DNA from: Octopus vulgaris
Taxonomy: Eukaryota
DNA length: 64,000 bases
Direction: 5' to 3'
NCBI GenBank assembly: GCA_951406725.2
Contig: OX597816.1
Location: 46,934,001-46,998,000, forward strand
In this document: one piece after another, positions 10,436 to 38,600 of the stretch
How positions within the stretch are numbered: the first letter of the stretch is position 1
Layout: every line of letters begins with the position of its first letter
Made by a program: the position numbers and the translations under genes
Notes under the pieces: generated by a model
Told to the model about the DNA's origin: nothing
Seen by the model: only the letters and a program-made list of their open reading frames with translations
Databases searched by the model: none

Positions 10436-10691
10436 TCAGTTTTGTTTCTTCATGTTTTTGTTCTGCTTGTAAGACAAAGCAGCCGTTCGTTTTAACAAAT
10501 TATTTCGAACTAAATCAGATGACCATCCATTGACTACATGAGAGTTATCAACCCCTGATTCACTGTCACTCTCCACACTTGTATCAACACCTTCATCTTT
10601 GTGGTCATCCTCTGTGCTAATGTCCATCTTGCGAACAATGAGTCGAAGAAGTTCATAGTGTTTGTTTATGCTGTTTGTGATATCTCGCAAT
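10436..10691 (-). CDS. TRPA1: TRPA1-like terminal coding exon (coiled coil, acidic cluster, stop)
   Basis: ttccag acceptor; LRDITNSINKHYELLRLIVRKMDISTEDD...KKQN*; TGA at 10438-10436. Confidence 0.92.
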
Positions 10692-13600
10692 CTGGAAGGA
10701 AAGTACAAAACAGTGATAAAAGAAGGGGAAAATTATTAGATACTCGACAATCACAATGTGTATATTATATATACACACACATATATACCACACTATGAAG
10801 AAAAAAAACATTCTTATAGACCAACTTCATTTTTAATTTTAATGAAATGTTTCTCTTCATGGTATATCTAATTAACAAGTTACAGGTTAAATCATGATGA
10901 AAATTTCTAAAAGGAATAAAATAATGCTATACATGACTACCACCAACCAGAAACCCTAAGAACTTCATAGATAAATAAAATTTTAAAAATTAAATAAACT
11001 CTGCATCTTCGTGATCCTAAATTTCTAATTCCATTTCATGTTGCGATGAGGTAGTTACCTCCCTTCAGCATTTATGTGCATAAATAAATTTATATATATA
11101 CTTTTTACTCTTTTACTTGTTTCAGTCATTTGACTGCGGCCATGCTGGAGCACCACCTTTAGTCGAGCAAATCGACCTCAGGACTTATTCTTTGTAAACC
11201 TAGTACTTATTCTATCAGTCTCTTTTGCCAAACCACTAGGTTACGGGGACGTAAACACACCAGCATCAGTTGTCAAGCGATGTTGGGGGGACAAACATAG
11301 ACACACAAACATATACACACACACACATACATGTATATATACATATATACGACGAGCTTCTTTCAGTTTCCGTCTACCAAATCCATTCACAAGGCTTTGG
11401 TTGGCCCAAGGCTATAGTAGAAGACACTTGCCCAAAGTGCCACACAATGGGACTGAACCCGGAACCATGTGGTTGGTAAGCAAGCTACTTACCACACAGC
11501 CACTCCTGCACCTATATATATATATATATATATATGATATAAAAGTCCCTTTTCACATTAATATGATAAAAAAAAAAAAAAAAATTGGCATGGCAAGATT
11601 TGAACTCAAAACCTAAAGAGTCACAAGGAATATTGCAAAGCATTTTTTGCAATATTCTAATGATTCTGCCTATTCACTGCCTTAAAATAGTTTCTAGTTT
11701 AAGGCACAAGGGCAGCAGTTTTGAAGAGAGGAAGTTTGTTGGTATCATCAACTCCATTACTTGATTGCTACTGTATAATATTGACCTCAAAACAGAGACT
11801 TTGATAGAATTTGAATTCAGAGTGTAGAGAGCTGAAAGAAATATACCAAATCTTTTTATCAATTGTTCCAGTGATTTTACCAGACAAGCACCCTGTCTTC
11901 TATAATCTTAATAATACTACAGTTATATTACAAAGCAGTGAGCTGGCAGAATTATTACCCCACCAGGTAAAATGCTTAGCAGCATTTTGTCTGTCTTTAT
12001 GTTCTGAGTTCAAACTCTGCTGAGTTTGACTTTGCCTTTTATCCCTTTTGAGTTTGAGAAAATAAGTACCAGTTGAGCACTGGGGGTCAATGTAATCAAT
12101 TTATCCACTCCCTTCAAAATTGCTAACCTTGTGCCAAAATTTGAAACCAATTTTACTATTACATTACCTTTTCTTTTGTTGGTGCATTTCATCATAAAGG
12201 TAAGCATTCTGTGCAATTGAACGGCCCAAACTAGCTAATTTAGCATCCAATTGCCCTGCATCTGCATCTTCATTTACAATTTTCTACAAGAAATAAAGAA
12301 AATTATTAATGTTTTCTTACCAGTTCAGCTATTCAAAATATTATTACTGAAATCTTCAAAAAGAAAAAAAAAAGCACCTTTTCCTCTTCCCAAGTTTTGT
12401 GTTGTTTAACCCTTTAGTGTTCAGATTACTCTGTTAAATGAAATACTTTTTCACTCAAATTGTTTTGAATTAATCATGCATTAACTTATAGCTTTGAGGT
12501 TTCAATGATATGATTGTTTATTTTTAGAATGTCAATGTAGGTTAGGTGTGAGAGGCTATATATCGCCAGTTTAAACATTAAAGGGTTAATCCTCTAGCAT
12601 TTAAACTGGCCATACCTGGTTCAAATGTTCTACCTGTTTTATGTTCAAATTGGACAGATCTGATCTCTCACACCTACCATACAATGACATTCTAAAAATA
12701 AACAATCACACCGTCAAGATCTCAAAGCTATGAGACAACGCATGACTAATTCAAAACAACGTGTATGAATAAGTATTACATTTGACAATAATTCTGAATA
12801 CTACAGGATTAAGGAAGCTATTGCTGCTTTCTTGTATTAGTACTGTAACTGTAATAGAAAAAGTTGGTGTTGAGAATCATAATTGAAACCTATGCCCCAA
12901 GTAGAGCATTAGGAATTATCCTTAAATAATTATGGCACCAGGTCACCCAAAGGACAGAACCTTAAACCTAGTGTATGTGTGTGAGTTTGTTCGTGGTCCT
13001 CCAAAAATTTCTCAGTTTGAGTTGTGTCATTGTTGCCATTTCCTCTGTGAATGAATCATCTGTTGTCTTTACATGTTTTAAGACATGTGGTATAAGATAT
13101 CCCTTAGTTGAAAAACAAGAGATAGTAGCAAGGAGGGCATCTGGCTGTAAAACAATTCCTTAATAATATATTCATTTAAGTCATGCCAGCATAAAAAAAA
13201 AAACCCTGTAAAGACGAACATATACATATACTCCTCCACATATACATGCATACATACATTATTTATATATATTTATTATGATAAACTCTTGTATGTCCAA
13301 ATTTGGCCAGTTGTGTTTTTTTCAGTATTTTTGCTTGCAATAGCCAGTTCATTTGGTCAAACTATCATATCTCTAGCTGCTTCAACAGTTTTGGTATGGA
13401 ATAGTGAAACTATTTTTTTTGTTTTCTGAAAAAGCAATGTTTTGGATTTACAACACATTTGCATAAAAACAACGATATATGTATATATATATATATATAT
13501 GGCAAATTGGTGTGCTTGAGATGACATGTCAAGCTAAGTGAAATTGTGGACATGGCCTAGTGCTGGTGATAATGTGAATGGCACCCATGCTGGTGAAAGG

Positions 13601-14236
13601 CACCCTGTACTGTGGACTGGTTGGCATTAGGAAGGGTATCCAGCCATAGAAACCAAGCCACTACAGACTGGGACCTGGTGCAGGTCTCTGGCTTATCTAT
13701 CTAAGCCATAGTAGCATGGAAAATGGACGTTAAATGATGATGATATATATTTGTACTAATGTTCCCAGGTGGCAGGCTTGATAATTGTTGAGAGTTTTCT
13801 TTCTACATGAAACCATTGATAGCCTTGTTAACTCACAAATATGTGTATGCCTTTCTTTGATGCTCAACTGCTGATGAAATTGGAGGGACACCACTGTGTT
13901 GGGCATTTATTTTTCCAGACCTAACAGAGTTCATGCCTCTCCTGGTCTGATCATAGTTAAATTCTTTCAGAAATTGAGAAAGACGAAAACAGGCAGTGGA
14001 AAAGAAAAATGAGTGAGAGAACGAGAAGAATCTACCCCCAGTACAGGATTGGTACTTTATTGTTGCTAAAAGGATGAAAAGTAAATTGACCTGGGCAGGG
14101 TTTGAACTTGGTGTGCAGAGTGTTTGAACAAAAATTCCTCCAATGCTCTAACAACTCTGCCAATTGGCTGTCTTACATCATACATACAAAATCCCCCCTC
14201 CCACACACATAAACATGCATACATATACACTCATGC

Positions 14237-14278
<42 letters not shown>

Positions 14279-17200
14279 CACACACACATGGTGCGATGCG
14301 TAAATTTTCACCATTTTATATATTTAATTTCATGCATTGTTTTTGATTTTGTTGATTGCACAGTATTGTAGGGTCAGTTGGGCACCATCTGTGAGAAAAA
14401 CAGCACCATGATGCAATTCACTCTGATAGAAATTTGGAAACAACATGCTGTACTGCTTGGTATTCACAGTGGAAGCTCCAATACTAACATTTCAGAGTGT
14501 TTGGGTGTCAGTCTGAGGACATGTACTAAGAGTGATAAACATCCAGTCAACATCATGGTGTTTGGAGTGATCACTAGTGATGGTGACGTTATGCCTCCAT
14601 CTTCCCACATGACCTCAGTCTCAACACGGAAACCTACATGTAGTGCCTGAAGGAGGTAGTATTGCCTTGGGTCAAGAGGGTGGCTGATGTAAGGCAACGC
14701 TGGTAACGATCATGCTCAAATGGTGCTTTTTATGTGCCTGTTACTGTTAATCTAATTTCAGTCACAAGTCTTTGATAGAAGCCTTTGCTCAAAATTATAT
14801 GCTGTGGATTTGAACACACAATCGTATGACTGCAGCATGAGCTTGTTAACCGCATGGTCATATGTGTCTGAGAATACTATAAATGTGAAAGGAAACTAAC
14901 CAGTCTGTTGGGATAGATGCGATAAATCATTTTATTGACTTTCTGGATAAATCTGCGAGGTAGTTTGCTTTCCAAATCGGCATGTAATTCTACCTGTAAA
15001 ATGGATTTTAAAATATTCAAGCAAATAAAGGATTAACCGTATGGAACATGACAAAAGACTTTAACAATAATTAAGACTTAAAAGGTTTTAAATAATAATT
15101 GTTGTGTAGGTATGAGTGAATAAATGAATGCTTAAACCAAACGAGATTTAACTCTGTTTACATAACTAATTAAAGTATAATTAATGCACGTTTTGGTGCA
15201 CCTGACCACTATATACAATAATTTCATTATTATTTTATTATAATATAATTCCATTATAAGAATACAAAGTATTCTAGCTTCACTCTAAAATACATTTTGT
15301 AGTGGGGATGTGTGGCAGAAGTTGGAGTTATAACTCACTAAATTATCTTAGAGCAAAGCTAGAAATAACTTGTACATTGTAATTCTATTTATATAATTGT
15401 ATGTGTGTGTTTGTGTGCATACGTGTGTGTGTGTGTGTGCATAGTTCCAGTCTTTCTATAGTACTCTGTGTATGTTTATGTGTAATGTATATGAGAGAAG
15501 AGAGTGGGAAGGTAGATTACATTAAGAGAATTAATGAGGCGTAAAAATGTACAGTTGAAAGATAGAAAAATAGATCAGTTAGTGCAAGTGTATATTCTGG
15601 AATAAAGAAGGGAGTTGTAAAAATAAAAAAATATTATTACTAGTGAAAAAGCATATAAGAGAAAAAGGTATATTTGGGGAGAGAGAGAGCCTTAGGTAAT
15701 ATAATATCAATCAATTCACTTAACCTGGTTTTTGGTGAAAACAAAAATTTATCTCAAAATATTTTGATTAGATAAAACACCTGATGTTTAGTAGACATAT
15801 ACACAAACTCACACATAAACATAAAGAAGAGAAAGAGTCAAACATCAATTTGTTTATATTTGACTGAACAGACCTATATTTATAACCCCCACACCTGTGA
15901 TCATCCTCTCTCTCTCAAGATGGTTGTAAGATTTGAGGTACATTTGGTTGTTATTTCAAAGCAATTCAACGACTATATGGAGACTCTCTCATTGATTCAT
16001 TTTGTACTCTGTTGTATCCAGTGATACATCATTTGGTTCTGAGAGAACAAATGTATGCTACAGCTTTCGTGCTTATTTTATGATTCAGAGGCATCACTAT
16101 AGCATGTATTGCCCAGTGCAGTCCTTGAGCTTTTCCCCACTTCTGGGTCCTAAAGTCTGTACTGGCTTATACAACTGACCCAAAAGTGCTGCCCTCAAAA
16201 AAGCATCAACTGGGGGTAGACAGACCTTTCTTGTACCACCTAGCTAAATTACTGCAAGGATTTTATCATTCTTCTTAATTGGTTAAGAATATTTATTGTG
16301 TTAGAAGGCTCAGTTGTGTTTATGACATACATACCTCTCCCAGAAGCATTTAGTGTGTCAGTGAAGTGAAATAACATCAACTGGGACTTAGACTAGATCA
16401 CAGTTTACAGCAGTGTTTACTTCTTACTTTGTACTTATGTGTTTTCAGGAAGAAAAAGGTAATTATAACATACTTGCTTCTCCTTAGAGCATTTACTATG
16501 TAATTGAAATAAACGGTAGCCAAAAGCCATGGCTGTCACTCACATGTAAGTATGGGCTGCTTTCACGGACTGTTTTCAGTGCCTCTGTAGCCATGAGTAA
16601 ACATTAGTTTGCCTCCTGGCACTACCCATCCTTGATTTAGCAGAACATTGAGGATGTAACAGTTGAAAGGAAATAGGGCTGTACTAGCACTAGCTAGGGC
16701 TCATTTTCAGTTGAGTAGACTGGAACAGCATGAAATGAAGTGCATTTGTTCTCAAGAACATAATTTGTTGGCTAGTTGAACCTACACCTTAAGATCATGT
16801 AACCAACTCACTTAAACACATTGTTTGATGTTTTCTTCAAATTCTATGCCCATGGGCTATGGGTTATAATCCATTCAGTCATAACTGGTGCACCTGAGCA
16901 CTGTATACAATAATTTCATTATTATATTATTATTATAAAGATATCACTGAAGACTTCATTGTCATCTTTATGCAGGGTAAGTCAGCATGGCAGAGGGATC
17001 ATCCTTCTACAAACTGTACTCACAAGAGAAGTTAGGCTCAGTGCTGAGAGTTACTGAAATTCTTATCAATTTTATAGACCTTAAAGGGGTAAGTTGCTCC
17101 CATACAGCAGAATATATTTACAACCTTGTGCACCGGGTTAGTTAAGAGTTTTGGTTATGTACAAATCATGGCTGTTGTTTAAGCTCCAGGCCAGCCTTAA

Positions 17201-18658
17201 TTGGGTATACCTATAATGAAAATCATTGCAATTGTTATATACTCACTTCTACCCAAAACTTGTATATTTACTAACTAACAGGTACCCTGTTGGTTATAGT
17301 GATGAAGGTTCCAGCTGGTCTGATCAACAGAACAGCCTGCTCTTGAAATTAACATTCAAGTGGCTGAGCACTCCACAGACAAATGTACCCTTAATGTAGT
17401 TCTTAGGGAGATTCAGCATGACACAGAATGTGACAAGAGATGGCTGGCCATTTGGAATACAGGTACTAACTTTTGTCAGCTGTACTGATTGAAGCAATGT
17501 CAAAATATTTTGTTCAAGGATGTGTCTCTGGGAATCGATCTCATGTCCTTACAATCATAAGCTAAATACCCTGACCACTAAGCCATGTGCCTTCACTATT
17601 CATATATCTATCTATCCACTCAGTTACTCGATGGATCAGTGTTCTTCAGCCAGTTCTATCCTGGGTCGCTTCTTTCAGATTGGCTATGGCCATTCCTGTG
17701 TCACTCTTGATGATGTCAAACCAGTGGGTTCTTGGTCGGCCTCTTCCTCTCTTGCCACTGGCCATTCCGAGCATGATGTCCTTCTCCAGGGATTTTCTCC
17801 GCATAATATAACCAAAATATGCCAATCTATGCTTGGTGAGCCTAGCTTCTAGTGACAGTTTTGGCTTGATCTGGTTAAGAGCTTCTCCATTGGTGAGCCT
17901 CGCTGTCCATGGAATCCGTAAAAATCTTCTCCAACACCAAAGCTCAAATGCATATACTTAGGTCTATATTATGCAATGTGATCATCCTTTTTTTTAAGAT
18001 GGTAGGATGTGACATGAAGGAAATTGGGTTGCTAGACTTGCTTGTTTGTTCAATAGCAAAAGAATATTAACTTCTAACAACTTGATCATCTGGTCATCTA
18101 ATGACTTGTCTCTCCACTCATGTTGACTTCTTGTTGTGTACCAATAGCAATATCTATAAAGTGCCACTTTGTAATCAATCATACTCCATTCCTCCATTAC
18201 CAAACTGAAGCTTCGTGCCAATGTCAGAAAAACAATATTTACCTGCATTGTCAATCTTTTTAATCGTGCATCTCTGATGACAGCATCAATATTGCCAACA
18301 GCCAGGCCGATCTGGAAAAAAAAAGGAAAAAATGATATTAAAAAGAAAGGGGTCCCTTATTTGCTTTCCATGTTCTTGTACCCCTTTTATTACCATATTT
18401 GTGATGAAATATACTGCTTTTGTTATAATTAATTTTGAAAATAATCTTTTACTTGTTTCAATCATTAATCTGCAGCTATACTGGGGCACTGCCTAGAAGA
18501 ATTTTTTAGTTGAATGGATTGACTCTAGTGCTTATTTTTTTAAAGCTTACTACTCATTCTGTCAGTTTCCTTTGCCAAACTGCTAAGTTATGGGGATGTA
18601 AACATACCAACACCAGTTGTCAAGTGGTGGTGGTGGGGGATAGACACAGGCAGAAAGA

Positions 18659-18699
<41 letters not shown>

Positions 18700-21600
18700 C
18701 TGATGACCTTGTTTCAGTTTCCATCTACCAAATCCATTCACAAGGCTTTGGTCAGTTCCAGAAACCATGTGGTTTGGAAACAAACTTACCACACAGCCAC
18801 TCACGCACCTATATGACCACTCCAGTGCCTATAATGAAGAATTTGGTAAAATAACTCAGTCATTATTAAGTTGAAGTTTCAACGAAAACTAACATGAAAT
18901 TTGGATAGAAGGTTTTCATTTTGATCACTTTAGAAAAGCCAATTTGTATCATAAAACTAAGTCTTGAGTAGGTTGGTATCAAAAAGGGTTGATATTTAAA
19001 CTGAAGATATATATATATATACATACACACACTAAATAAAACCCTCGATTCAATAGCACTGTGTACAAACTCTGTACTTGGAATGACCGAGTTTAAATAC
19101 TGTTGGAATTTACTCACAAGGTATTGGAATCTTATATGTATACCATTCTGCCTAAATAATGGATCTACAAATGCAATATCCCTGCATATCTCACATCTTT
19201 TTTCATTCCTCAACTTCACTCTCTATTTCATATCTTATCTAAATTAACTATTGCTTAACCATTTTCTCACACTGTCTCTGATGAAGGGATATATAAAATA
19301 TCCTGGAAACAGCTGTAAGACCTATTTATAAATGTTCTAGAATCTTTACAGCCTTGGTTTTTTTTAAATCTCATTCTGGAAAAAAAATTTATATATAGGA
19401 GCAGGAGTGGTTGTGTGGTAAGTAGCTTGCTAACCAGCCACATGGTTCCAGGTTCAGTCCCACTGCGTGGCATCTTGGGCAAGTGTCTTCTGCTATAGCC
19501 CCGGGCCGACCAATGCCTTGTGAGTGGATTTGGTAGACGGAAACTGAAAGAAGCCTGTCGTATATATATATGTGTGTATGTGTTTGTCCCCCTAGCATTG
19601 CTTGACAACCGATGCTGGTGTGTTTACGTCCCTGTCACTTAGCGGTTCGGCATAAGAGACTGATAGAATAAGTACTGGGCTTACAAAGAATAAGTCCCGG
19701 GGTCGATTTGCTCGACTAAAGGCGGTGCTCCAGCATGGCCGCAGTCAAATGACTGAAATAAGTAAAAGAGTATATATATATATATATCATAGTGGAGGCG
19801 CAATGGCCTAGTGGTTAGGGTAGCAGACTCGCGGTCGAAGGATCGTAGTTTCGATTCCCAGACAGGGCATTGTGAGTGTTTATTGAGCGAAAACACCTAA
19901 AGCTCTACGAGGCTCCAGCAGGGGCCAGTGAACCCTGCTGTACTCTTTCACCACAACTTTCTCTCACTCCTTCTTCCTGTTTCTGTTGTACCTGTGTTTC
20001 AAAGGGCCAGCCTTGTCACGTTGAATCTCCCCGAGAACTACGTTAAGGGTACACATGTTTGTGGAGTGCTCAGCCACTTGCATGCTAATAAATGAGCTGT
20101 GACGTCACTGGTGCCAAGCTGTATCGGCCTTTGCCTTTCCCTTGGATAATATTGGTGGCGTGAAGAGGGGAGGCTGGTATGCGTAGGCAACTGCTGGTCT
20201 TCCATAAACAACCATGCCCAGACTTGTGCCTCGGAGGGTAATTTTCTAGGTGCAATCCCATGGTCATTCATGACCGAAGGGGGTCACAATATATATATCA
20301 TGGTTTATGGTTTAATATTACTGCTTTTTCTATCCTTGAGCCAAAATTTGAAACCAATATTACTTTCATTGCTCTCTTACTTTTTGCCAGCAAGGTATTG
20401 GTTAGGCCACTTAAATCTATCAACCTTGGCACCTGACCAGTACTGGAACATGACAAAGTGCTGAAAACAAACTTTAACCCTTTAGCATTCAGATCATTCT
20501 CTCAAATGTAATACATATTATTCACATAGTTTTGGATTAAGCATGCATTATCTTATAGCTTCAAGATTTCAATGATGAGAGTGTTTATTTTTACAATGTC
20601 ATAATTGGGTAGATGTGAGAGGCCAAATCTGGCTGGTTTCAACATAAAACAAGTAGAATATAGAAAGAAAACTTTAAAAGCAGCTTGTTTTATTTTTGAA
20701 GTCATACAGAAAAACAGAAGTGAGAGAAATGCTTATCTATTTAATGATAAATACTGTAGGAGCCATTTAACAAATATTGTTAAAAAGATCAACGTTTCAA
20801 CAAAATATGCGTTGAATTTATAACGGGGATGAAGATATTTTTAAAATAAATATATAGTTAGTTAAGAAGAAGAAATGTTGTATTTACCAGCAAATTCATA
20901 AGCATGATGGGTGTGAATAACATGAACATGGCCAACATTAGAATACTGACATTGCCGAAATGTAATGTGTATGGATCGTCGTCTGTAAATGGCTCATTGA
21001 AATTATCCATAAACTCTGGTTCCAGAATCATCATTCCAACTCTTAAGATAGACAAGGCTGGACTACGATGAGCATGGGATTCCTATAAAAGAAATAATTT
21101 TTTTTACTTATATAAATCAAACCCCTTAATGTATCAGCATCATCATTATTATTATTATTTTCATTAATGTGGTGAGCTGGCAGAATTGTTAGCACGCTGG
21201 ACAAATGCTTAGCAGTATTTCATCTGCCTTTATGTTCTGAGTTCAAATTCTGTCAAGGTCAACTTTGCATTTCATCCTTTCAAGGTCAATACATTAAGTA
21301 CTAGTGAAACACTGGGGTCGATATAATTGACTAACCCCCTCCCCTAAAATTTCAGGTCTTGTGCCTTTAGTAGAAGGGATTATTATTATTATCATTAATG
21401 TGGTGATCTGGCAGAGTCGTAAGCATGCAGGAGAAAATGCTTAGTGGCATTTCTTCCAGCTTTACCTTGTGTGTTCAATTTCTACCGAAGTCGACTTTGC
21501 CTTTCATCCTTTCAGGGTTAATAAATCAAGTACCAATTGAGTCAAAGTAATTGGGCTAGCTAACCTCCTAAGAAAAATTGCTGGCCTTGTGCCAAAATTT

Positions 21601-23962: not shown

Positions 23963-26900
23963 ATGTTTGTGTGTCTGTGTTTGTCCCCTCAACATCGCTT
24001 GACAACCGATGCTGGTGTGTTTATGTCCCTGTAACTTAGCAGTTCAGCAAAAGAGACTGATAGAATAAATACTAGGCTTACAAAGAATAAGCTGTGGGGT
24101 CGATTTGCTTGACTAAAGGCGATGCTCCAGCATGGCCACAGTCAAATGACTGAAACAAGTAAAAGAGTAAAAGAGCATGCCAGCTTCTAGGAATATGTTT
24201 AATATGTAAATTGGTATATCCAATAACATTACACCACTGTAATTAGTGGCTATTTAAGCAATGAGTTTGTCGATGATCAATGGGTTAGATGGGTGCTGAG
24301 GAAGGAGCAAAAACTCCTGAAATATGGCATATATTCCCATTACTCATTTTTCCATCTTTGATTTCATTGTTTGTTTACATGTGACATCTCGGATATGAAA
24401 TGTAACAAAATCAGTGGTGGCTATCATTTTGTATTGAAAATCTGTGGAGATGATCTTAACATGTGATTTAAGTGCACTGCTAACACAGTAGTACATGATA
24501 TTGATTTATAAAAATGTTTGATATACTTTGTCTTTGTAGCATATTATGGTTGCATAACAAAATACTGTATACCTGCAAGTCGATAATTATTATTATTATT
24601 CAGAGAGAGAGAAGTACATGCCATCAAAGTGACACTGGGGTAAAATAAAGAAGCCCGTCATATATATATATGTATATGTGTGTGTATATGTTTGTGTGTC
24701 TGTGTTTGTCCCCCCAACATTGCTTGACAACCGATGCTGGTGTGTTTATATCCCCGTCACTTAGCGGTTCAGCAAGCGACATTGATAGAATAAGTACTAG
24801 GCTTACAAAGAATAAGTCCTGGGGTTGATTTGCTCGACTAAAGGCGGTGCTCCAGCATGGCCACAGTCAAATGACTGAAACAAACAAAAGAAAAAGAAAA
24901 GAAAGAAATACAACAAATTGCTAAGGATTCACTGATTTACCTCTTTTGCCATGACAACGTAGAAACCCATACCAAAGGCAATGAAAAGAATGCTGTAGAT
25001 ACATAGTGCCTGGATTAAAGTTCTCAGCACTTCAAGACACATGACCACGTGAAGACCAAAGATCTCAATCCTGAAACAAATGAAGTTAGAATGTCATCAT
25101 CATCACCACCATCACAATCATCATTGTCAACATTGTCTTCGTCGTCCTCCTCCTCCACCACCACATCCTCCCCCCCCCACCATCATTGTCTTCGTTAATA
25201 TTGTCATTGTCATTATCATCATCACCCTCATAGAAATTGTTGTCCCACTCCTCCTCCTTTTCATCATTATCACCACCACCATCATTTTCATCATTATCAT
25301 TATCCTTGCCATCAGATCATCACCATCATTGTCCTTGTCATTCTCGTTGGGATCATCCTCATAGTCATCATTAACATCCTCTTCTCCATCATCATTTTCC
25401 TCCTCCTTTGCCATCTCATGCAAAGGAAAAAAAATTTGAGGTAAAAAGTGAAACAAAGATATCTACTATAATAATACTCGTGTGTTTTTCTCCGTCGCAA
25501 CATATGAATGAGAAAGGAAGGGGTGATAGATGAATAAGGAAGGAAAGGGTGATGTCAAAGTTGGTAGAGGGATGATGGAAATTCTACAGTGACATATTCT
25601 ATTTTTGCCCTTATTTATATATAAAATACAACAATTAGCCATCGTTTTTGATGGCATGGGGCCAGCTAGTATATATATATTTATTTAATTATAATGACAG
25701 CTTAATATGATAATACAATTGTCTTAGAATTCAGACTGTTGGTTAGCACATCAGACCCTGTTTGTTAAAATAAAGGTTTTTAGGTTCAATCTGTGGCACA
25801 GCTCTGGAATATTACCTGAAAATGGTTGAAGAGGACACCAATTGGAAATGTTACCTCACTATGACATACAATGATGAAAGAAATAATCCCCCAAAGCATA
25901 TATAACTATGAAAAAATATCTCAGAAAAATTATATAAAGCACAGGTATGGCTATGTGGTTATGAAGCTTACTTTGCAGTCATGTGGCTTCAGGTTCAATC
26001 CCATTGAGTGGCACCTTGGACAAGTGTCTTCTTTTATTGCCCCAGGGTGACCAATGTCTTATGAGTGAATTTGTTTACCAGAAACTGTACCAGAAAAGGC
26101 GGTGAGCTGGCAGAAACGTTAGCATACCGGGCAAAATGCTTAGTGGTATTTAGTCTACCGTTATGTTCTGAGTTCAAATTCCACCAAGGTCGACTTTGTT
26201 TTTCATCCTTTCGGGGTCGATAAATTAAGTACCAATTACACACTGGGGTCGATGTAATCAACTTAATCCCTTTGTCTGTCCTTGTTTGTCCCCTCTGTGT
26301 GTAGCTCCTTGTGGGCAGTAAAGAAATAAGAAACTGTGTGGAAGCCCATCATATATGTGTGTGTGTGTGTATGTGTGCCTGCCTTTATGTCTATGTTTGT
26401 CTCCCACTGACTACTTGACAGACAGTGTTGGTTTGTTTACATCCCCATAACTTAGTGGTTGGAATAAGTACCAGACTTAAGAAACAGATAAATGCTAAGG
26501 TCATTCTGACCAACTAAAACCCTTCAATGCAGAGTGCCCCAGCATGGCCACAGTCCAGTGACTGAAACAAATAAAAGATATAAGACAAATGAAAAGATAA
26601 AGAGATAAAAGAACTTTACCTTTGTAAGAATACCAGAAGGTTGAACCAAGCAAAGAAAATGGCCAAAGCACCTGCTTCCCACTGGAAATGAAGTGACAAC
26701 CGAAATAGAAATGGTAGAATGAACACACATGTGGAAGTGTAGAGTATCCATTCCAAAATGTTTATAGGTTCACGGAAATATCTCTTTCCCTATAAAAACA
26801 ACAATAAGAACAGCATCATCATCATCATCAACTAAACTCAGACTAGGAAAATCAGTCTTATTTACTTATTTTCCTTGTAGAATTTATCTGTAAAGTAGAT

Positions 26901-27666
26901 ATAAAAACATGTAGTGAGGATACTGGAAGAATCCCAAACACCAACTCACTATCAAGGAATTAAACTCCAAATTACTGTCTTTAGATGTGAAAATAACTAT
27001 AAACACCCACTGGGACTTTGTCAAGGACTGACAAGCAGCTAACCATTGCTAAAAACATTAAGAAACTAAACTTGCAAAAAACATTGAGAAACTGTTTTTG
27101 TCAGTGGCTGTGATAACTGTTGAAGTTGTGAAGGACCTAATCATTTTTGGGATAAACAACATTATTAGAATGTCATTAACAATTTTGTCTTTGGTGCATT
27201 TTCTTTGACAGTCTATTGGGTATATAAAGATAGTTTGTCTGGTAACAGACTAGTGGTTGTGACACAGCTAAAAATCAACTTGATGCAGGAACTAATACCA
27301 CTTACTTGACTATGGAATTTGATGCCTACTACAATCTGCTATTATTACTGATACATATCCCACACAACTGAACATCTTTTTTTTTTAAGTTGTTTCACGA
27401 TGACATTTTTTTGTTAACAATTAAATAAATATTTATGTATTAGGACTTCACACTGATTTTTGTTCTCTTTTCAACCAACCAAATATTTTGTTACAAGCAT
27501 GTGACAATGTGATATATTACTTACCTGCTGTATAATTTGTACAATTTCTTTCAGTAAATTTATGATACAGAAAATTGTTATCAACCATATTGTGATACTG
27601 TGAAAAATGGACAGCTGTAAAGGATATACAGAAAAAGAATTACAAACAAGAAGTAGTTAAAATAAA

Positions 27667-27697
<31 letters not shown>

Positions 27698-28439
27698 TGT
27701 TGTTGTCAGTTATTATTACACCCCTTTTGGTTCTAATTTGCCTGAGACCACCCTAAGTTCTATTATACAAATCCCTTGTTTTATAGCGATCTAAATTAAA
27801 ATTTGCCATCACAATTTCTTGTAAGTTTATGTTCCAAATACCAGCTTAATAACAACAAAGTTATTTAAAAAAATTCTTCATTACTTTAAAAATTGAAACA
27901 AAGGTAATATATTTCACAATAAATATGGTAATGAAATGGTTACAGCAAGCAAACTAGTTTCAATTTTATTTTAATTTCCTAATCAGTAGAACTGAACATA
28001 AATAGTTCTAGCTTCTTTTGTTAAGTGTAACTTATATAAAAAACAAAATGTTTTTAGTTCTATAATTACTAAGTTGAAAGGTAAACTACTTTTTTTTTGT
28101 AATTTAATCTCCCCTAATTAATCCTTCCTCCGAATAATGATAGGCAAAACCCAGATAGTTTAGGCTCAAAAACAATTTCTTTAAAGCTGCAGTGTGGATT
28201 GGTTTTGAATTTCCTTTCAAACTCTTGGAATTATGCCCCAAACACACGCACACACACACACACACACATGTATGTATATATACATTCTATGTAGAATACC
28301 TCATATAAAAACTAGTAGAGTTTTATACTTTTTGGGGTTCAGTCCATCTGCATGGAACATTGGGTGTCTTCTACTATAGCTCTAAGTTGACCAATGCCTT
28401 GTGAGTGAATTTGGTTGACAGAAAGTGTATGCAAGACTG

Positions 28440-28483
<44 letters not shown>

Positions 28484-31400
28484 CATCATATATATGTATG
28501 TGTGTCTCTGTGTCATTGTGTCTGTTCACTGCCCCAAACTATTCCATGAAAACCCATCTTAGTTCGTTTACATTGTATAACTTAGTGGTTCATCAAAATA
28601 GCTAATACAATAAATATCAGGCATAAATAAATGAGTATTGGGGTTGATTTGTTCAACAAAAAGACCCTTCTAGGTGGTGCTCCAGCATGACTATAGCCTA
28701 ATGACTGAAACAAATAAAGATAAAAAATAAAAACAAGAATCTTCACCAATGCTAAACCTAGTATTTCTTGAATTCTTTATTTACTATTTCACTTGAAAAC
28801 AATCATAGGTATTTCATTCAATCAATTTAAATGAGAATAAATGCATAATTTAATGAGTTAAAATAATTAAAAAAAGAAAAAATACATAAGAAATTTACCT
28901 CAAATGTCTGCATTACTTTGAAACTACAAGCATCAATTTCTTCTTTGGTCTTTTCATCATCAGCAGAAACTGTTGATACTTTTACAGTATGATTTAGAGC
29001 ATAACTATATAGGGAGGAGTTGTGAGGTAAGAGAGCAATTAGAAATATTATATAGTATGAATATTTTTGAAAATAAATCCTTAAACTAATACATACATAC
29101 ATATGATGGCTACCCCCTCGTTATCGAGTATGGCCATTGCACAAAGCTTAACTGTTATTGATGCTGTGATCGAATGTGACTTTTTAGCCCAGCTAAAGAT
29201 CTACAGTCTTGTACAGAATTGGCAGCTAAAACCTTTACCAGCTTCATGTACCTTTGCATGTCGTTTAAGTCCTCTTGCCGAATTACACTCTCTTCCACAT
29301 GCCTGACAGATACGATTAGTATGGTGTGTTACACCACCACCAGTGGCCAGGTTGTCACTCATCAGTCTCGCTTTATGACTATGAAGATGACTCTTGAGTC
29401 CAGCTTTACTGAGGCAAGGTCTTGCACAGACACTGCATGCCATCTGGAAGTGTAACAGCGATGCCCTTCCTGACATCCCTCCTTACTTTCTCATGCACAA
29501 CTCGAGATTTCTCATACATACATACATACACACATATCATTGTGTGTGTACACTTGTCCTGACATCAAACAATGGTTGTAAATAAGCATCATTGTCACAC
29601 AAGCAATTAGTTAGTTCCCAGTTTTACGTGGTAAAGCATGCCTGGCCATGGAAGATATTACCTTGCTTGGAAGCAGATGCGGGTTGGTGACAGGAGAAGC
29701 ATCTATGCATAGAAAATCTGCCTCAATAAATTCCGTCTGACCCATACAAGCAAGGAAAAGTGGACATAAAATGATGTAAATGTGTGTGTGTGTGTTTGTG
29801 AGGGTGTGCATGTGTCTGTATGTGCATTGTTTGTGTTCACCCTTGTCATCAATCATCATTATAATCATCATCATCATCATCGTTTAACGTCCGTTTTCCA
29901 TACTAGCATGGGTTGGACGGTTTGACTGGGGTCTGGGAAGCCAGGAGGCTGCACCAGGCTCCAGTCTGATCTGGCAGTGTTTCTACAGCTGGATGCCCTA
30001 TCCTAGCGCCAACCACTCCATGAGTGTAGTGGCTGCTTTTTATGTGCCACTGGCACAGGGGCCAGAGGAGGCTGGCAATGGCCACGATTGGTTGGTGCTT
30101 TTTACGTACCACTTGACATTATTTGTTGGTTGCAAATGAGTAAAAGAGTCATGCAGGCAAGGTTGTATAACAACAAGAAGGACATTCAGCCATAAAAAAT
30201 CTGCCTCAACAAATTCCATCTGACCCATGCAAATATGGAAAATCAACCACTAACTGATGATGGTGGTGATGATGACAATGTACTTTGGAGTGATCCCTAA
30301 TATATAACTGGTACTATTATTTTTCATATGAGCCACTGAGATGAAAGATAAAAACTATCTCAGTGGAATATAAAATCAAGAGAGAACAATACTCAAATGT
30401 TTTCAACCCCCTATCCTATTAACTCACTAGTCTTGTTCATTCTTGCTTTATGGAATTTAATAACAGAAATTCAGTTCATTAAAACTAAGAAATACAGATG
30501 ATAAGAGGATTTTAAAGAAGAAATCAAAGTCTATTGAAATAATATGCTATAGATACCAATTAAAATCAAAAGAAATCACTGTCTGGTACCTGCAGTCTGG
30601 ATCGTAATGCATCATTGAATCATGAGTGGTTACAAAATTGGTTAGAAGTCCAAGAAAGATTATGTACAGGAGAAGATTGAAGATATAGATCCAACGGCCA
30701 TATGCATTCCTATCAAATTGATTAAAGAAAATGAAAAATACAATGTGAATTAGATGATAGATTAAGTGTGGGTTAGATGGTAGAATAAATATGAATTAGG
30801 TTGTGGATTGTGTGTGGGCTAGATGATGGCTTAGTTGGTGGATTAGATGGTGGATTAAGTATGGGTTAGATAGTGGATTAAGTGTGGGTTACATGGTGGA
30901 TTACGTATAGGTTAGATGGTGGATTAAGTATGGGTTAAATGATGGGTTGTGTGTGGATTAGACCATGGATTATATATGGATTAGATGGTGGATTGTGTGT
31001 GGGGTAGATGGTACATTATTTGTGGGTCAGATGGTGGATTAAGTGTGAATTATATGGAGGATTACGTGTGGACTAGTCAGTGAATTAAGGGCAGTTAAGT
31101 GTGGGTCAGATGGTAGATTAATTAATGTTCCTCAAATTTCAAGTTCAGATCTTGCTGTCAACCTTACATTGTATTTTTACAAGCCACTGAGAGAACCTCT
31201 ACATGATTTCTTAACCCGATAGAAATAATAATAATAATAATGAAATTATTGTATACAGTGCTCAGGTGCATCACAACTTGTCAGAGTATATGCAGTAATG
31301 TACAAATGTCTGGAAAGCAAACAATGCATGAGTCAGATACATGTTTGTGTATGTATGGAGGGGAGAAAATCAGGTGTAGTGTTGGCGAATCTCAGAAAGC

Positions 31401-32385: not shown

Positions 32386-34614
32386 TTTTATAAAGATTGT
32401 TGTTCATATGCACCACATGAGAGATGACTGCACTGGTATGGTCATGTGATGTATATGGATGAGGACAGCTGTGTAAAAAAGTGCCAATCTCTAACTGTGG
32501 AGGGGAATTGTGGAAGAGTTAGACCCAGGAAGACATCGGATGAGGTGGTGAAGCTTGATCTTCAAACATTGGTGATGACAAGTGACCAAGACCTTTGGCA
32601 ATATGCTGTGCTTGAGAAGATTCATCAAGCCAAGTGAAATTTTAGTTGTGGCCAATGCCAGGGTCATATGACTGGCACCTAAAAACACCTATGCCAGTGG
32701 CATGTAAAGAGCACCCGTTACACTCTTGGAGTGGTTGGCATTAGGAAGGGCATCCAACCATAGAAGCCATGCCAAATCAGAATGAAACTTGGTTGCGACT
32801 CTCTGGCTTACTGGCTTTAGTCAAACTGTCTAACTCATGCCAGCATGGAAAGCAGATGCTAAACGATGATGACATAAATCTTCATGAAGGTAAATAGACA
32901 ATGAAAAGAATGTGACGCAATTTGTAATAGTTTATTTAACAGTTTGAACAATATTTCAGCAGCTTGTCTGTCTTCTCCAGGTTAATAATAATAAACAATC
33001 CTTCCTAGTGTAACAGGATGAAAGGTCTGTAACACATGAGGGGTGCAGGTCTCATCCCGTTACATTAAATTATTTGTTGAAGGAAAAGCCAAGACATCGA
33101 ATATCTTCAAGCAGCATAAATATTTTTTATTTCCTGGATTTGCAATAATATATATATATTGGCGTTAGGAAGGGCATCCAGCTGTAGAAACACTGCCAGA
33201 TCTGACTGGACTGGTGCAGCTTTCGGGCTCCCCAGACCCCAGTTGAACCGTCCAACCCATGCTAGCATGGAAAGCGGACGTTAAATGATGATGATGATGA
33301 TATATATATATATATATATATATATATCCTTCAGGGCGAACCGGTAGCCATGGAACTAGTCACAGTAGTTAAATGGTGTGAACCAAATCCTATTTTGTTC
33401 CAGCATAGTGTAGCTTCGCCACGTGGTGGCAGCTTAGTAGAGCTATGAGGACGCGTCCATTCAATTCGGTGTCAGCTTCAAGAGAGAGAACGATACACGG
33501 GAAGTTTAGCTGCTGGTAGTTCTCTGCGCATGCACATGAGGGGACTTCCGGCAGCCTCCCGGAAGAAATCCAACTCTGCGCATGCGTGCTGAAGACTTCC
33601 AAAATCGCGTCACTACACTAGTGTAGGCACAAAGCTTGAAATTTTGTGAGAGGGGCTAGTCTATTACATTGACCTCAGTACGCAACTGGTACTTTATTTT
33701 ATCAACCCTGAAATGATTAAGGGCAAAGTCAACCTTGGCAGGATTTGAACTCAGAATGTAAAGACGGGCTAAATGCCGCTAAGCATTTTGTCCGGCTTAC
33801 TAATGACTCTGCCAACTCATCCCTGCTTCTCTTCTTCCTTTACAACTCAGTTGCTAGCAATCCAGCTGTAAAAAAATTAATCCAACAAGTGATTCATCTT
33901 CCCCCAGGGAAAGACAGATATAAAACAAAAAACATAATATGAAAAGAAAACAACTATGTTTCAAACAAAAATGTAAATATTTACCATTTCATTTTAAGAA
34001 AGTTTTCACAAACAGGATGTGAAAGTAAATCTTCTCTTCCAAGTTTTGCCATCATCTTTTGGAAGATATATAAAAAAATTATGTGATTAGTCATTTGTCA
34101 TTTGAAATAATATTTTCATTACTTTTAGTAAATGAAGTTACATTAGTCGTTTTTGGTTCTAATTTGTTGAATGGAAAGTATTTTTATATTTATTCACACA
34201 CACACATACAAGCGTACACATAGATGCTCATACATGCATGCACACCCATACACACACAAATATTAAAAAATGGTTGATAGATAGATAGATAGGTAAATAG
34301 ATAGATAGATGATAGACAGATGGACAAATGGATGGATGGGCAGACAGATGGACAGACAGATGGACAGACAGACAGATGAATAAATGGATGGATGAACAAA
34401 CAGAGAGACAGACAGACAGACAGAGAGATAGTCAGACAGATAGACAGACAGACAGAGAGATAGTCAGACAGACAGATAGATAGATAGACAGTCAGACAGA
34501 CAGATAGATAGATAGACAGTCAGACAGACAGATGAACGGATGGATGGACAGAGACAGATAGAGAGGTAGTCAGATAGACAGACAGATTAAATAGTTAGAG
34601 AGCTAGATAGATAA

Positions 34615-34657
<43 letters not shown>

Positions 34658-35610
34658 GAGAGATAGATAGAGTGCTTGTCTCTACTTCTCTACAATAGTT
34701 TCATGCTAGTATCCAGGAATTTGGACATGGTGATGTTTTATCAAACTTTTGTCATAGGAGGCAATGACAAGCGACTGAGGCCTTTGGACATATGCTGTGC
34801 TTGAGAAGACTTAGCAAGCCAAGTGAGACCGTAGCCATGGCCTATGCCAGTGTTGCATAACCGGCCCATTTAAGAGTACCCTTCAATCATTGGGCAATAT
34901 ACTGTGCTTGAGAAAACCTGTTGAATCAAGTGAAATCATTATCGTGGTCGATGCCAGTACTGCCTGACTGGCACCCATGCCAGTGGCATGTAAAAAGCTC
35001 CATACGAGCATGGTTGATGCCAGTGCCACTTGACTGGCTCCCATGCCAGTGACATGTAAAAAGCACCATACAAGTGTGGTTGATGCCAGTGCGGTCTGAT
35101 GGGCTCCCGTGCCGGTGGCATATAAAAAGCATCATTCGAGCATGGTCGTTGCCAGTGCCACCTGACTAGCTCAGATACCGGTGGCACGTAAAAAGCACCC
35201 TTTGATTGTGGTTGATGCCAGTACCACCTAACTGGCTCCCATGCCGGTGACATGTAAAAAGAACCCACTACACTCTCAGAGTGGTTGGCGTCAGGAAGGG
35301 CATCCAGCTGTAGAAACCTTGCCAGATCAGATTGGAACTTGGTGCAGCCTCCTGGCTTGCCAGTCGTCAGTCAAACCGTCCAACCCATGGAAAGTGGACA
35401 TTAAATGATGATGATGTGTTGAAGCAAAAGACAAGATAACAGATAATATTTATAAATCTAGACCCTGTAGGCGGAAAAAAAATGCTGAATCTGTAGCAGA
35501 TTGATGTTACTGGAGATGATGGAATACATATAATCAGGAGAAGAAGAAGAAGACGACGAAGAAAAAAAAAGAAGAAGAAGAAGAAGAAGAAGAAGAAGAA
35601 GAAGAAGAAG

Positions 35611-35642
<32 letters not shown>

Positions 35643-38600
35643 AAACAACAAAAACAGAAAGAAGAGAAATGAAGAAAGGAACAAGAGTGGAGGAGAAAAG
35701 GTGAAAAAAAATTGAAAGAATTAATAAAGAAGGGAAAAAAATTGATTTATAGAAGCTTCTATCAATGATAATTTGATGAATTAAAAAATAGCAATATCTA
35801 CTTACGACTAAGCAGGATAAAGGCCCAAAGCTCTCTTTCTGGGCTGGCTTCTTCTTGTGGTAAATTGCTGGATGTTGCATGTGTTTGAAGTTAAATTCAA
35901 TCTTGAAATATTAAAAGGTGGGGGAAAAAAAAACCAACAATGAAACAACAATAAAAATCATTGATTTCTCAGATTGGCACACAGCTAGAAATTTTCAACG
36001 AAGGTATAATTAAGTAATTCAACTTCAATATATGACCGGTATTTATTTCAAACTAATGAGTGACCTCTATATGATTAGAGAATCTTTTAAAATTTCCCTC
36101 AAATCACACTTGCATCATTATCATTATCTGTTTTCCATGCTGGTACGGGTTGGATGGTTTGACAGGAGCCGGCAAGCCAAAGGACTATGCCAGGTTCCAT
36201 TGTCTGCTTTGGTATGGTTTCAATTGTTGGATGCCCTTCCTAATGCAATTACTTTACAGAGTGTACTGGGTACTTTTTACATGACACCAGCACTGGTCCT
36301 TTTTATATGGCATCTTTAGTTCCTGAAGCACCATAAGAGGAAACAAAGTATATTTTGTTGGACTAATGGCTGTGGATGAAATATATATCATACATACATA
36401 AATACACACACACACACACGCAAACACATATGTATATTATGAGGCAATTTGGCCTCATGGAGGCAATGATGAAAGACCGAGATCTCTGGAGATATGCTGT
36501 GACTGCGAAGACCCGACAAATAACGTGAGTTCATGGCTGTTTCCTGCACCAGCTTCACATAGCAGCCCCAGCCCATCCAAAGTATCTTAGATTGCAGGAC
36601 GGCCTGCTGTGCTTACCTTGGATCATAGGGCGACCTGCTGTGCTTGAGGAGACATATTGAGTTAAGTACATCAACATCAAAATAAAAATTAAATGGAAAT
36701 TGTAGGTGTGATACCCTTGCCGGTGGCACATAAAAAGCACCATCTGAACATGGCTGATGCCAGTGCCACCTTGACTGGCTTTTGTGCCGGTGGCTCATAA
36801 AAAGCACCAACTGATCGTGGCCGTTGCCAGCCTCCCCTGGCACCTGTGTCAGTAGCACGTAAAAAGCACCCACTACACTCACAGAGTTGTTGGCATTAGG
36901 AAGGGTAGCCAGCTGTAGAAACACTGCCAGATCAGACTGGAGCCTGATGCAGCCTCCTGGCTTTCCAGACCCCGGTTGAACTGTCCAACCCATGCTAGCA
37001 TGGAAAATGGACGTTAAACGATGATGATGATGTGTGTGTGTGCATATTAGTCACAGCCTTACATTATATTGCACAAATATATGATAAAATGAAATTAAAG
37101 CAAAATATTACTGGTATCTTTTTTTTTTTATCTGCAGCAGGCATGAAAGACAAATCTAAATCAGTCAGTTTCAACTCTCTTAAACAATGCAACAAATGAA
37201 GTACCACTGTGTTGTTGAAGATTGAATCTTTGGATTCATATCTACTACACACCAAGAAATCTTAAAAAACACATTGAAATTTATAAGTAGCTATTAATGT
37301 GTAAAGCATGAGGAGAGAATTTATTGAGAATTGAAGTCACATTGCACAAAACACCATCATCCTTCAGTATGGTTGAACAACCAATCTCAACCAGTTAGGA
37401 TCCACAGTTTGCATTATACTGTTCATCTTTTTGACCCCTGAGTGCAAAACATGACTCACAAAACCCCTGTTTGGGTGATTTTACATGATTTTGAATGCAT
37501 TACTTTCTGGAAACATATTACCATTCTTATAGCACAGTTATTAAATGATTCAAATCATGGACTTAAAATGTATCCATCAAACAATAGTTATTTTAAGTTC
37601 TAATGACTTATAGAACAAATGTAATGAACCAACTTTATCATGATATAAAGACATAAAACTTACATAAAAATGATAGCTCTTTGGTTGATGACTTGAAGAA
37701 GTCTGGCATCGATCTAAGACAGCCTAGAAGGATAAATTCAAATAATGTAGTAAAGAATAAAAACATAGAACCATAGTTTTGCAGTGTATATCTTCTAGGC
37801 ATGGCTATAGTGTTAAGAAGTTTGCTTTGCAACCATATGGTTTCAGGTTCAGTCCCACTATGTAGCACCTTGGGCATGTGTCTTCTTCTATAGTCCTGTG
37901 TTGAAATGATTTGTCAATAGAGGAGAGAGAGTAAGACGATTACAGTGACCATAGTCTTCAATTGACATTATTTTATTGATCTTGTAAAGAGAAAAGGCAA
38001 AGTTGATCTTGGTGCTATTTGAACTTAGAATGTGAAGACATGAAATGTTACTAAGTGTTTTGTCTGGAATGCTAACAGTTCTGCCAGCTTGCCACCTCTA
38101 AACTGTTAAATGATACTGATTGATGACCCCCATCCTGTGGAAACTACAGTTAGATAAACAGGAACAATTTGAAAATTGTCTTTACCTCAAATATGTTGCA
38201 GTGCAAACCATAATATGTATATGATGACATGTCATCTGGTTTACTGATGCTCAACCAAGCCAGCCATCTGTTCTTTGAAATCCTAAATCAATAATTCTCA
38301 ATAAGTGTTATTGTATTTGATGGCACATAAATACAGTGACCGAGCGAAGGAACAAGCAGGGCCTCTACTTTCGTGGACAAAACCACATGTCCAGGGGGTG
38401 AATCCATCAGCCTGCGGGATTGGCTGCAAACCCTTCGATGCACGGATCATAACCTCACATAAATAGCTGTGGTGCACCTGAGCAGTTGTGGTGTACCTGA
38501 GCACTATATACAATAATTTCATTATTATTATCATTTCATTATTATTATAAGACAAACATTTAAAAAAGCAAGTCTCAAAACAATACTTGAAATATATGAA

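Follow-up and report, generated by a model that had tools for sequence, protein, structure and literature searches.

Absence of the filter glycine in an octopus TRPA1-like channel and across mollusc alpha-TRPA1 proteins

Introduction

The window analyzed here, a stretch of 64,000 nucleotides from Octopus vulgaris contig OX597816.1 (positions 46,934,001 to 46,998,000), contains most of the length of a TRPA1-like gene on its minus strand. At the place where the selectivity filter of human TRPA1 carries a glycine, Gly914, the octopus pore exon passes directly from leucine to glutamate. The locus therefore raises the question of whether this is a flaw of the assembly or of the gene, a site restored by RNA editing, a peculiarity of the octopus, or an inherited property of a working channel, and what such a filter could mean for ion passage.

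Results

Gene structure and protein class

Residues 240–1173 of the annotated O. vulgaris protein CAI9719233.1 (P0001) match the window at 934 of 934 positions in 22 exon blocks running from 63274 to 10439 on the minus strand, while the first 239 residues are encoded past the window end. Eight ankyrin-repeat exons (41167–63274, residues 240–622), delimited by the exon match to P0001 and by Pfam, are followed by four that encode the linker and the pre-S1 region (33984–39608, residues 623–726), four S1–S4 exons in which the Ca2+ site residues E, Q, Y, N, and E are kept in the alignment (26619–30708, residues 727–888), and one exon for the S4–S5 linker and S5 (24941–25069, residues 889–931). The pore exon (20888–21082, residues 932–996) is of phase 0, is bounded by AG and GT, and comprises pore helix 1, the filter, pore helix 2, and S6. 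The lower gate and the TRP-like helix share an exon at 18240–18311, where the exon match and alignment reveal an intact IGLAV motif (18311–18297) and a change of the subsequent GD to GN. Three C-terminal exons (10439–14990, residues 1021–1173) cover a coiled-coil region and end in TGA. The gene is intact and not decayed, and the original prediction was right in regarding decay as unlikely and the IGLAV gate as preserved. An annotated short isoform, P0061, reads through the donor at 20887 into the intron and lacks the lower gate; it may be an annotation artefact.

Pfam assigns to P0001 the families Ank_2 (E 1e-81, eight stretches) and Ion_trans (residues 807–1007), and together with the predicted model it places a long N-terminal ankyrin array before a six-helix ion-transport domain, as expected of TRPA1. 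The lower gate IGLAV and the S2–S3 Ca2+ site, both features of alpha-TRPA, are present. Fly and human TRPA1 occupy ranks 1–11 among the closest solved folds of the octopus model; the best matches are 7YKR (E 5e-53) and 6PQQ (1e-30), at 35–36% identity. The octopus protein thus resembles human TRPA1 (PDB 6V9V and others) and Drosophila TRPA1 (7YKR) in its ankyrin array, six transmembrane helices, two pore helices, IGLAV motif, and Ca2+ site, but differs from them in the filter (L-E instead of L-G-D/E), in the proline following the acid, and in GN for GD. In a tree of the transmembrane region, sampled without beta- and gamma-TRPA rows, the gene falls within a mollusc TRPA1 group of 47 rows (SH-aLRT 98); its exact position among molluscs is unsure, as its branch is long. 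Table S1 of PMC13402157 classes two members of the protein's cluster, XP_052822050 and XP_036356844, as alpha-TRPA.

The filter sequence

The pore exon (21082–20888) translates as ESHAHRSPALSILRVGMMILEPEFMDNFNEPFTDDD, within which SILRVGMMILEPEFMDNFNEP is read from the minus strand at 21052–20990. Aligned with the human TRPA1 PDB chains (SSPLLSIIQTFSMMLGDINYRESFLEP, first residue 899), the octopus stretch, with the filter RVGMMILEPEF, is one residue short, which confirms the predicted absence of the filter glycine; the codons CTG GAA CCA GAG lie at 21025–21014, as had been anticipated. With the gap set at G914, the residue map reads G947=F909, L951=L913, E952=D915, P953=I916, E954=N917, D957=E920, and E961=E924. 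Leu951–Glu952 (CTG GAA, 21020–21025) accordingly form the junction without human Gly914, with Glu952 in the place of Asp915, and Pro953–Glu954 (CCA GAG, 21014–21019) are octopod-specific, other molluscs having L/M/I-D here. Alignment and model agree in placing Asp957 and Glu961 of pore helix 2 (20993–21007) at the positions of Glu920 and Glu924, so that acids are kept at all three human places, D915, E920, and E924.

For the octopus sequence alone, a gap at F909 fits as well as one at G914 (mean scores 29.5 and 28.9, respectively; 44 of 60 pairs). Less diverged Gly-less mollusc rows, however, place the gap at G914 in 1870 of 2340 pairs, and the octopus sequence aligns to other Gly-less mollusc rows without a gap. 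These pairs exclude three Branchiostoma rows as well as five from echinoderms, whose pore helix 1 is one residue longer. The alternative of a gap at F909 combined with a change of G914 to leucine was rejected on the evidence of the less diverged molluscs.

Two further traits pointed out in the original prediction were seen, and both have counterparts in other molluscs. Gly947 (21035–21037) does stand at the place of human Phe909, yet glycine is also found there in 10 of 49 mollusc rows (scallops, a mussel) and in 4 of 112 others. The outer pore is indeed very acidic, with seven acidic residues in 20, but the alignment puts this at the top of the mollusc range and inside it (median 5, range 3–7; 46 rows).

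Assembly, transcripts, and RNA editing

An assembly deletion of three nucleotides would have accounted for the short filter, but none was detected. Genomic contigs of runs X3 and X9, the latter possibly the source of the assembly, span the pore exon without a differing letter or a gap, and the same is true of spliced contigs of X11, X15, X16, and X18, which exhibit no A-to-G difference. RNA status was deduced from exon-only cover and, for X18, also from the loose ends of its contig, which match the exons on both sides of the pore exon and hence indicate splicing. Seven of the eight runs examined covered the filter, with no difference there; X12 gave no cover, and the X20 contig over the filter is unspliced and unchanged at that place. 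Elsewhere, unspliced X20 contigs carry two single-letter differences, A>G at 20900 in the exon, at depth 4, and G>A at 20866 in the intron; for a minus-strand gene neither is an A-to-I change. These differences are likely alleles. The filter of O. vulgaris recurs in O. bimaculoides, O. sinensis, and Argonauta hians. Given gap-free matches in genomic and spliced contigs, an identical filter in four octopod species, and 934 of 934 residues intact, the probability of an assembly error or a decayed gene is negligible.

It had also been suggested that A-to-I editing of GAA (Glu952) to GGA would create a glycine here; on this reading, editing could supply the missing residue in some tissues. The codon is editable in this way, coleoids recode widely, and contigs drop rare variants, so that low-level or tissue-limited editing would escape them. 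At the level of contigs, a G at window position 21021, where the DNA has A, was absent from all four spliced contigs, which come from three studies. The edit would produce L-G-P-E, a filter still one residue short and deprived of its only acid. Moreover, the same glutamate and the same gap occur in bivalves, snails, and a chiton, and most of the 49 mollusc rows, all of which have this glutamate, belong to lineages that are not known to recode heavily. The suggestion fails because the spliced contigs carry no variant, the edit removes the acid without restoring the length, and other molluscs share both the glutamate and the gap; we regard it as very improbable. No TRPA1 entry occurs in the supplementary file consulted for PMC8382921 or in that for PMC9068888; the files are likely not site tables, and this is not evidence in either direction.

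Distribution of the glycine loss

A collection of 163 proteins was assembled by protein searches (one of which contributed the best 120 of 700) and a cluster look-up, and 161 of them were aligned; many rows are near-copies, and all counts refer to rows rather than events. The 49 rows labelled as mollusc by source name comprise five octopod rows, a cuttlefish, a chiton, gastropods, and bivalves. The filter glycine of alpha-type TRPA1 is missing in 49 of these 49 rows, and the next residue is glutamate in every one of them, so the rarity implied for the short filter did not hold. By comparison, 108 of the 112 non-mollusc rows retain the glycine, and 105 of the 112 have glutamate at the filter. 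Glycine-bearing relatives include the annelid Owenia (MMLGEIDY), the nemertean Lineus (MMMLGDYDF), and the bryozoan Watersipora, these three being the named lophotrochozoan outgroups sampled. Since no mollusc row possesses the glycine, the alignment indicates that the L-G-D/E motif, replaced by L-E in the octopus protein, is typical of alpha-TRPA outside molluscs rather than defining for it.

The four exceptions among the non-mollusc rows are one Gly-less row nesting among bivalves and three full-length Branchiostoma rows with E-G-P. The latter (P0106, P0114, P0118) read GMMILEGPDAVD or similar, with the order of Glu and Gly swapped and proline next; their likeness to the octopus GMMILEPEFMD lies on a separate branch and is likely a case of convergence. 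In the freshwater-snail TRPA1-like proteins P0188, P0205, and P0209 the filter has drifted further (ILIF-EIEY, ILTF-EIEY, and IQIF-KKDF), and in P0209 a lysine replaces the filter acid.

In a tree computed without the pore-loop columns, 47 Gly-less rows of 83 lie on one side of a single branch (SH-aLRT 98), and one change is needed to explain the distribution. This was a quick IQ-TREE analysis rooted on Trichoplax, from which the long-branch rows P0059, P0060, and P0090 were left out; the trees were also built without the cut isoforms P0061, P0107, and P0109 and without most insect and fish rows. The glycine loss was likely inherited once from the mollusc ancestor rather than being an octopus oddity. 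The chiton lineage represents the deepest living split in molluscs, and as the chiton shares the Gly-less filter, the loss likely predates that split. The statement is confined to alpha-type TRPA1; another TRPA type of the O. vulgaris genome, on contig C2, reads MMIGELEF. No paper describing the mollusc glycine loss was found in the mainly open-access literature searched.

The octopod copy and its sister gene

Upon the filter shared with other molluscs, octopods carry a second layer of change. Proline after the filter glutamate is found only in the five octopod rows among the 49 mollusc rows, plus record P0162, the other rows having L/M/I-D/E. The 42 other mollusc rows share 128 columns conserved to 90% or more; octopods depart from these at 21 columns, 16 of which lie between the S4–S5 linker and the TRP-like helix; the S4–S5 linker/S5 exon alone accounts for nine of the 21 (FDxFGIYVVMF to IEIFGLHVVMC). 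At columns conserved outside molluscs, the octopod copy breaks 17 of 64 in the pore module, as against 2–11 in the 42 other mollusc rows. The excess of octopod changes in this module gives a Fisher p of 0.016 with mollusc-defined columns but 0.54 with columns defined outside molluscs, and their clustering there is not robust. Comparison of Octopus with Argonauta yields identities of 43/44 for the pore, 55/55 for S6–TRP, and 124/141 for the ankyrin/linker part. In the lower-gate exon, Asn1003 (AAT, 18293–18291) replaces the nearly invariant aspartate of IGLAVGD in octopods. An A-to-G change at the first base of this codon would restore aspartate, and the single contig that shows the codon (X18) is unedited. 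Among the codons read, four of the 21 octopod changes (T573, I912, N1003, T1017) could be reverted by A-to-G.

A sister gene on contig C9 (G000:C9:55150001-55190000) has an ordinary mollusc pore, with GIYVVMFLEIL, MMMLELDY, and IGLAVGD, and resembles the cuttlefish (Sepia) protein P0096. According to PMC13402157, O. bimaculoides has two alpha-TRPA genes, on chr3 and chr9, and these match contigs C3, which carries the gene studied here, and C9 of O. vulgaris. P0096 (CAE1328150.1), which falls in the Gly-less group, is likely the cuttlefish counterpart of the C9 copy; the TRPA rows consulted in Table S1 of PMC13402157, a paper that reports alpha-TRPA from octopods only, do not include this accession.

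The places of human C621, C641, and C665, the reactive cysteines for electrophile sensing, were mapped through the mouse protein P0116. Tryptophan and histidine occupy the C621 and C665 places (39608–39525 and 35901–35806, minus strand) in each of the four octopod rows and also in cuttlefish P0096, unlike human TRPA1, whereas octopods keep C641 as cysteine. The octopod pattern is therefore W, C, H instead of the three cysteines of TRPA1; among the 42 other mollusc rows, 27 have cysteine at the first place and 27 at the third. The C9 sister copy reads YGQT at the first place. These substitutions suggest that coleoid alpha-TRPA1 may respond poorly to irritants of the mustard-oil type.

Structure models and nearest known channels

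AlphaFold2 monomers were built for the octopus protein and for Owenia as a Gly-bearing annelid control, each from a 24-row alignment. In the octopus model, pore helix 1 spans residues 939–951 and pore helix 2 residues 955–963, joined by the three-residue loop E-P-E, whereas the control has the five-residue loop L-G-E-I-D. The pLDDT over octopus residues 951–960 is 56, compared with 74 in the control, and the models hint at a shorter, more rigid link between the pore helices in the octopus.

The nearest functional precedent is TRPA5B of the insect Rhodnius prolixus. PMC10993193 describes this protein as lacking Gly914 and having a short Leu-Glu pore loop, as in the octopus channel, a likeness taken from that description; it assembles into a homotetramer that, expressed in HEK293T cells, carries a heat-evoked whole-cell current. 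As RpTRPA5B is a member of another TRPA clade, its loss is likely independent, and within the insect TRPA5 group the loss concerns only a part, versus all sampled mollusc alpha-TRPA1. A word search of the paper returned no reversal-potential or permeability data for RpTRPA5B. The paper also cites G914 as important for upper-gate movement and gating in human TRPA1. According to PMC5100928, D915 is the constriction of human TRPA1, and E920 and E924 collect ions; in 500 mM Cs+ the D915E channel still conducts, at 77% and 71% of the wild-type level, although its pore is more than 2 Å narrower, and mouse D918E has a raised Ca2+ permeability.

A clade-wide shortening beside the filter and a new proline before the post-filter helix also characterize vertebrate TRPM2, a member of another TRP family. 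There, according to PMC6461439, the proline that starts this helix turns it by about 10 degrees and, together with a loss of acids, accompanies inactivation; the octopus channel gains acids. The cephalopod alpha-TRPA genes listed in PMC13402157 include the two cluster members named above, and the words 'pore' and 'selectivity' do not occur in its main text, which leaves the filter undescribed. This paper and PMC8539334, PMC12980990, and PMC12919962, in the parts consulted, classify mollusc TRPA genes, give expression, or test worm orthologues; those parts contain neither an analysis of the pore nor a recording from a mollusc TRPA1. Likewise, no current or permeability recording of any mollusc TRPA1 turned up in the mainly open-access literature searched. 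The original prediction had named as its refutation a shortened filter common among characterised invertebrate TRPA channels of ordinary selectivity: the short filter is common, and in this literature no carrier with measured selectivity was found.

Discussion

The reading we favour, and consider probable, is that the locus encodes an intact, spliced alpha-type TRPA1 that carries the ancestral mollusc loss of Gly914 and works as a cation channel which conducts and admits Ca2+ through a filter both shorter and stiffer. In the low-confidence model, pore helix 1 would run through Leu951, leaving only Glu952-Pro953-Glu954 to join pore helix 2. We hypothesize that in a homotetramer Glu952, directly after pore helix 1, would replace human Asp915 as the constriction, and that cations could be drawn in by Glu954, Asp957, and Glu961. 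Without a glycine hinge, the upper gate would presumably widen less, so that large organic cations would pass less well; the selectivity may be altered. The octopod copy would then have had its pore and gating retuned after a coleoid duplication, through Pro953 capping pore helix 2, the change of GD to GN, and the S4–S5 linker substitutions, and would since have been preserved by selection, with the ordinary mollusc pore presumably retained in the sister copy.

That the pore is dead is argued against by RpTRPA5B, which passes heat-evoked current as a homotetramer with the same glycine loss (PMC10993193). The original prediction had considered a modulatory or poorly conducting subunit, an idea weakened by this precedent and by the acids kept at the D915, E920, and E924 places. 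In its developed form, the octopod protein would conduct poorly alone and work in heteromers with the C9 copy. Such a role is made conceivable by the existence of that more ordinary copy, by the loss of the cysteines at the C621 and C665 places, and by changes at I894, Y895, F899, I902, F913, M988, and D1003 (mollusc consensus), residues that none of the 42 other mollusc rows has changed and that almost every further row also keeps. Against it stand the pore and S6, which differ less between Octopus and Argonauta than the other parts compared; the retention of the IGLAV gate, the Ca2+ site, and the three acids; and the loss of the same two cysteines from Sepia P0096, which is C9-like. We judge a subunit of this kind quite unlikely.

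Somewhat less remote, although still unlikely, is a pore of qualitatively different behaviour, in which the glycine loss, Pro953, and the extra acids would combine to make the channel strongly Ca2+-preferring, or Pro953 would tilt pore helix 2 and cause the filter to inactivate, as happens in vertebrate TRPM2. Over 20 residues starting at the filter there are seven acids and no basic residue, a larger net charge than in any other of the 46 mollusc rows, and E-P-E is constant in all five named octopod rows and in P0162. One snail row, however, also has seven acids, and the inactivation of TRPM2, for which the helix-starting proline offers the parallel, is tied in PMC6461439 to lost post-filter acids, the opposite of the octopus condition. 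A broader proposal, which we put forward tentatively and hold to be doubtful, is that TRPA1 of all molluscs operates on a Gly-less, hinge-free filter gained once at the base of the phylum, and that the octopod duplicate, proline-capped, highly acidic, and without the main reactive cysteines, would be a novel sensory channel, distinct in selectivity or gating, for example strongly Ca2+-preferring and electrophile-blind, beside the ordinary copy. For the favoured reading of a conducting channel, it should be kept in mind that inference from relatives is least safe for the octopod copy, as its count of broken pore-module columns is the highest among the mollusc rows.

The glycine loss is less surprising than it first appeared, being old, widespread, and accompanied by a conducting precedent. 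No account of this phylum-wide filter indel was found in the literature searched; there is one conducting precedent in insects, and the octopod copy is changed further. The Gly-less filter provides a clean indel marker for mollusc alpha-TRPA1. A whole phylum without Gly914, together with annelid and nemertean relatives that have it and a pair of octopus copies that differ at P953/E954, forms a graded series suited to probing the role of the glycine in gating, Ca2+ permeability, and pore dilation. For work on cephalopod nociception, the vertebrate pharmacology of TRPA1, with its F909 site and reactive cysteines, may not transfer.
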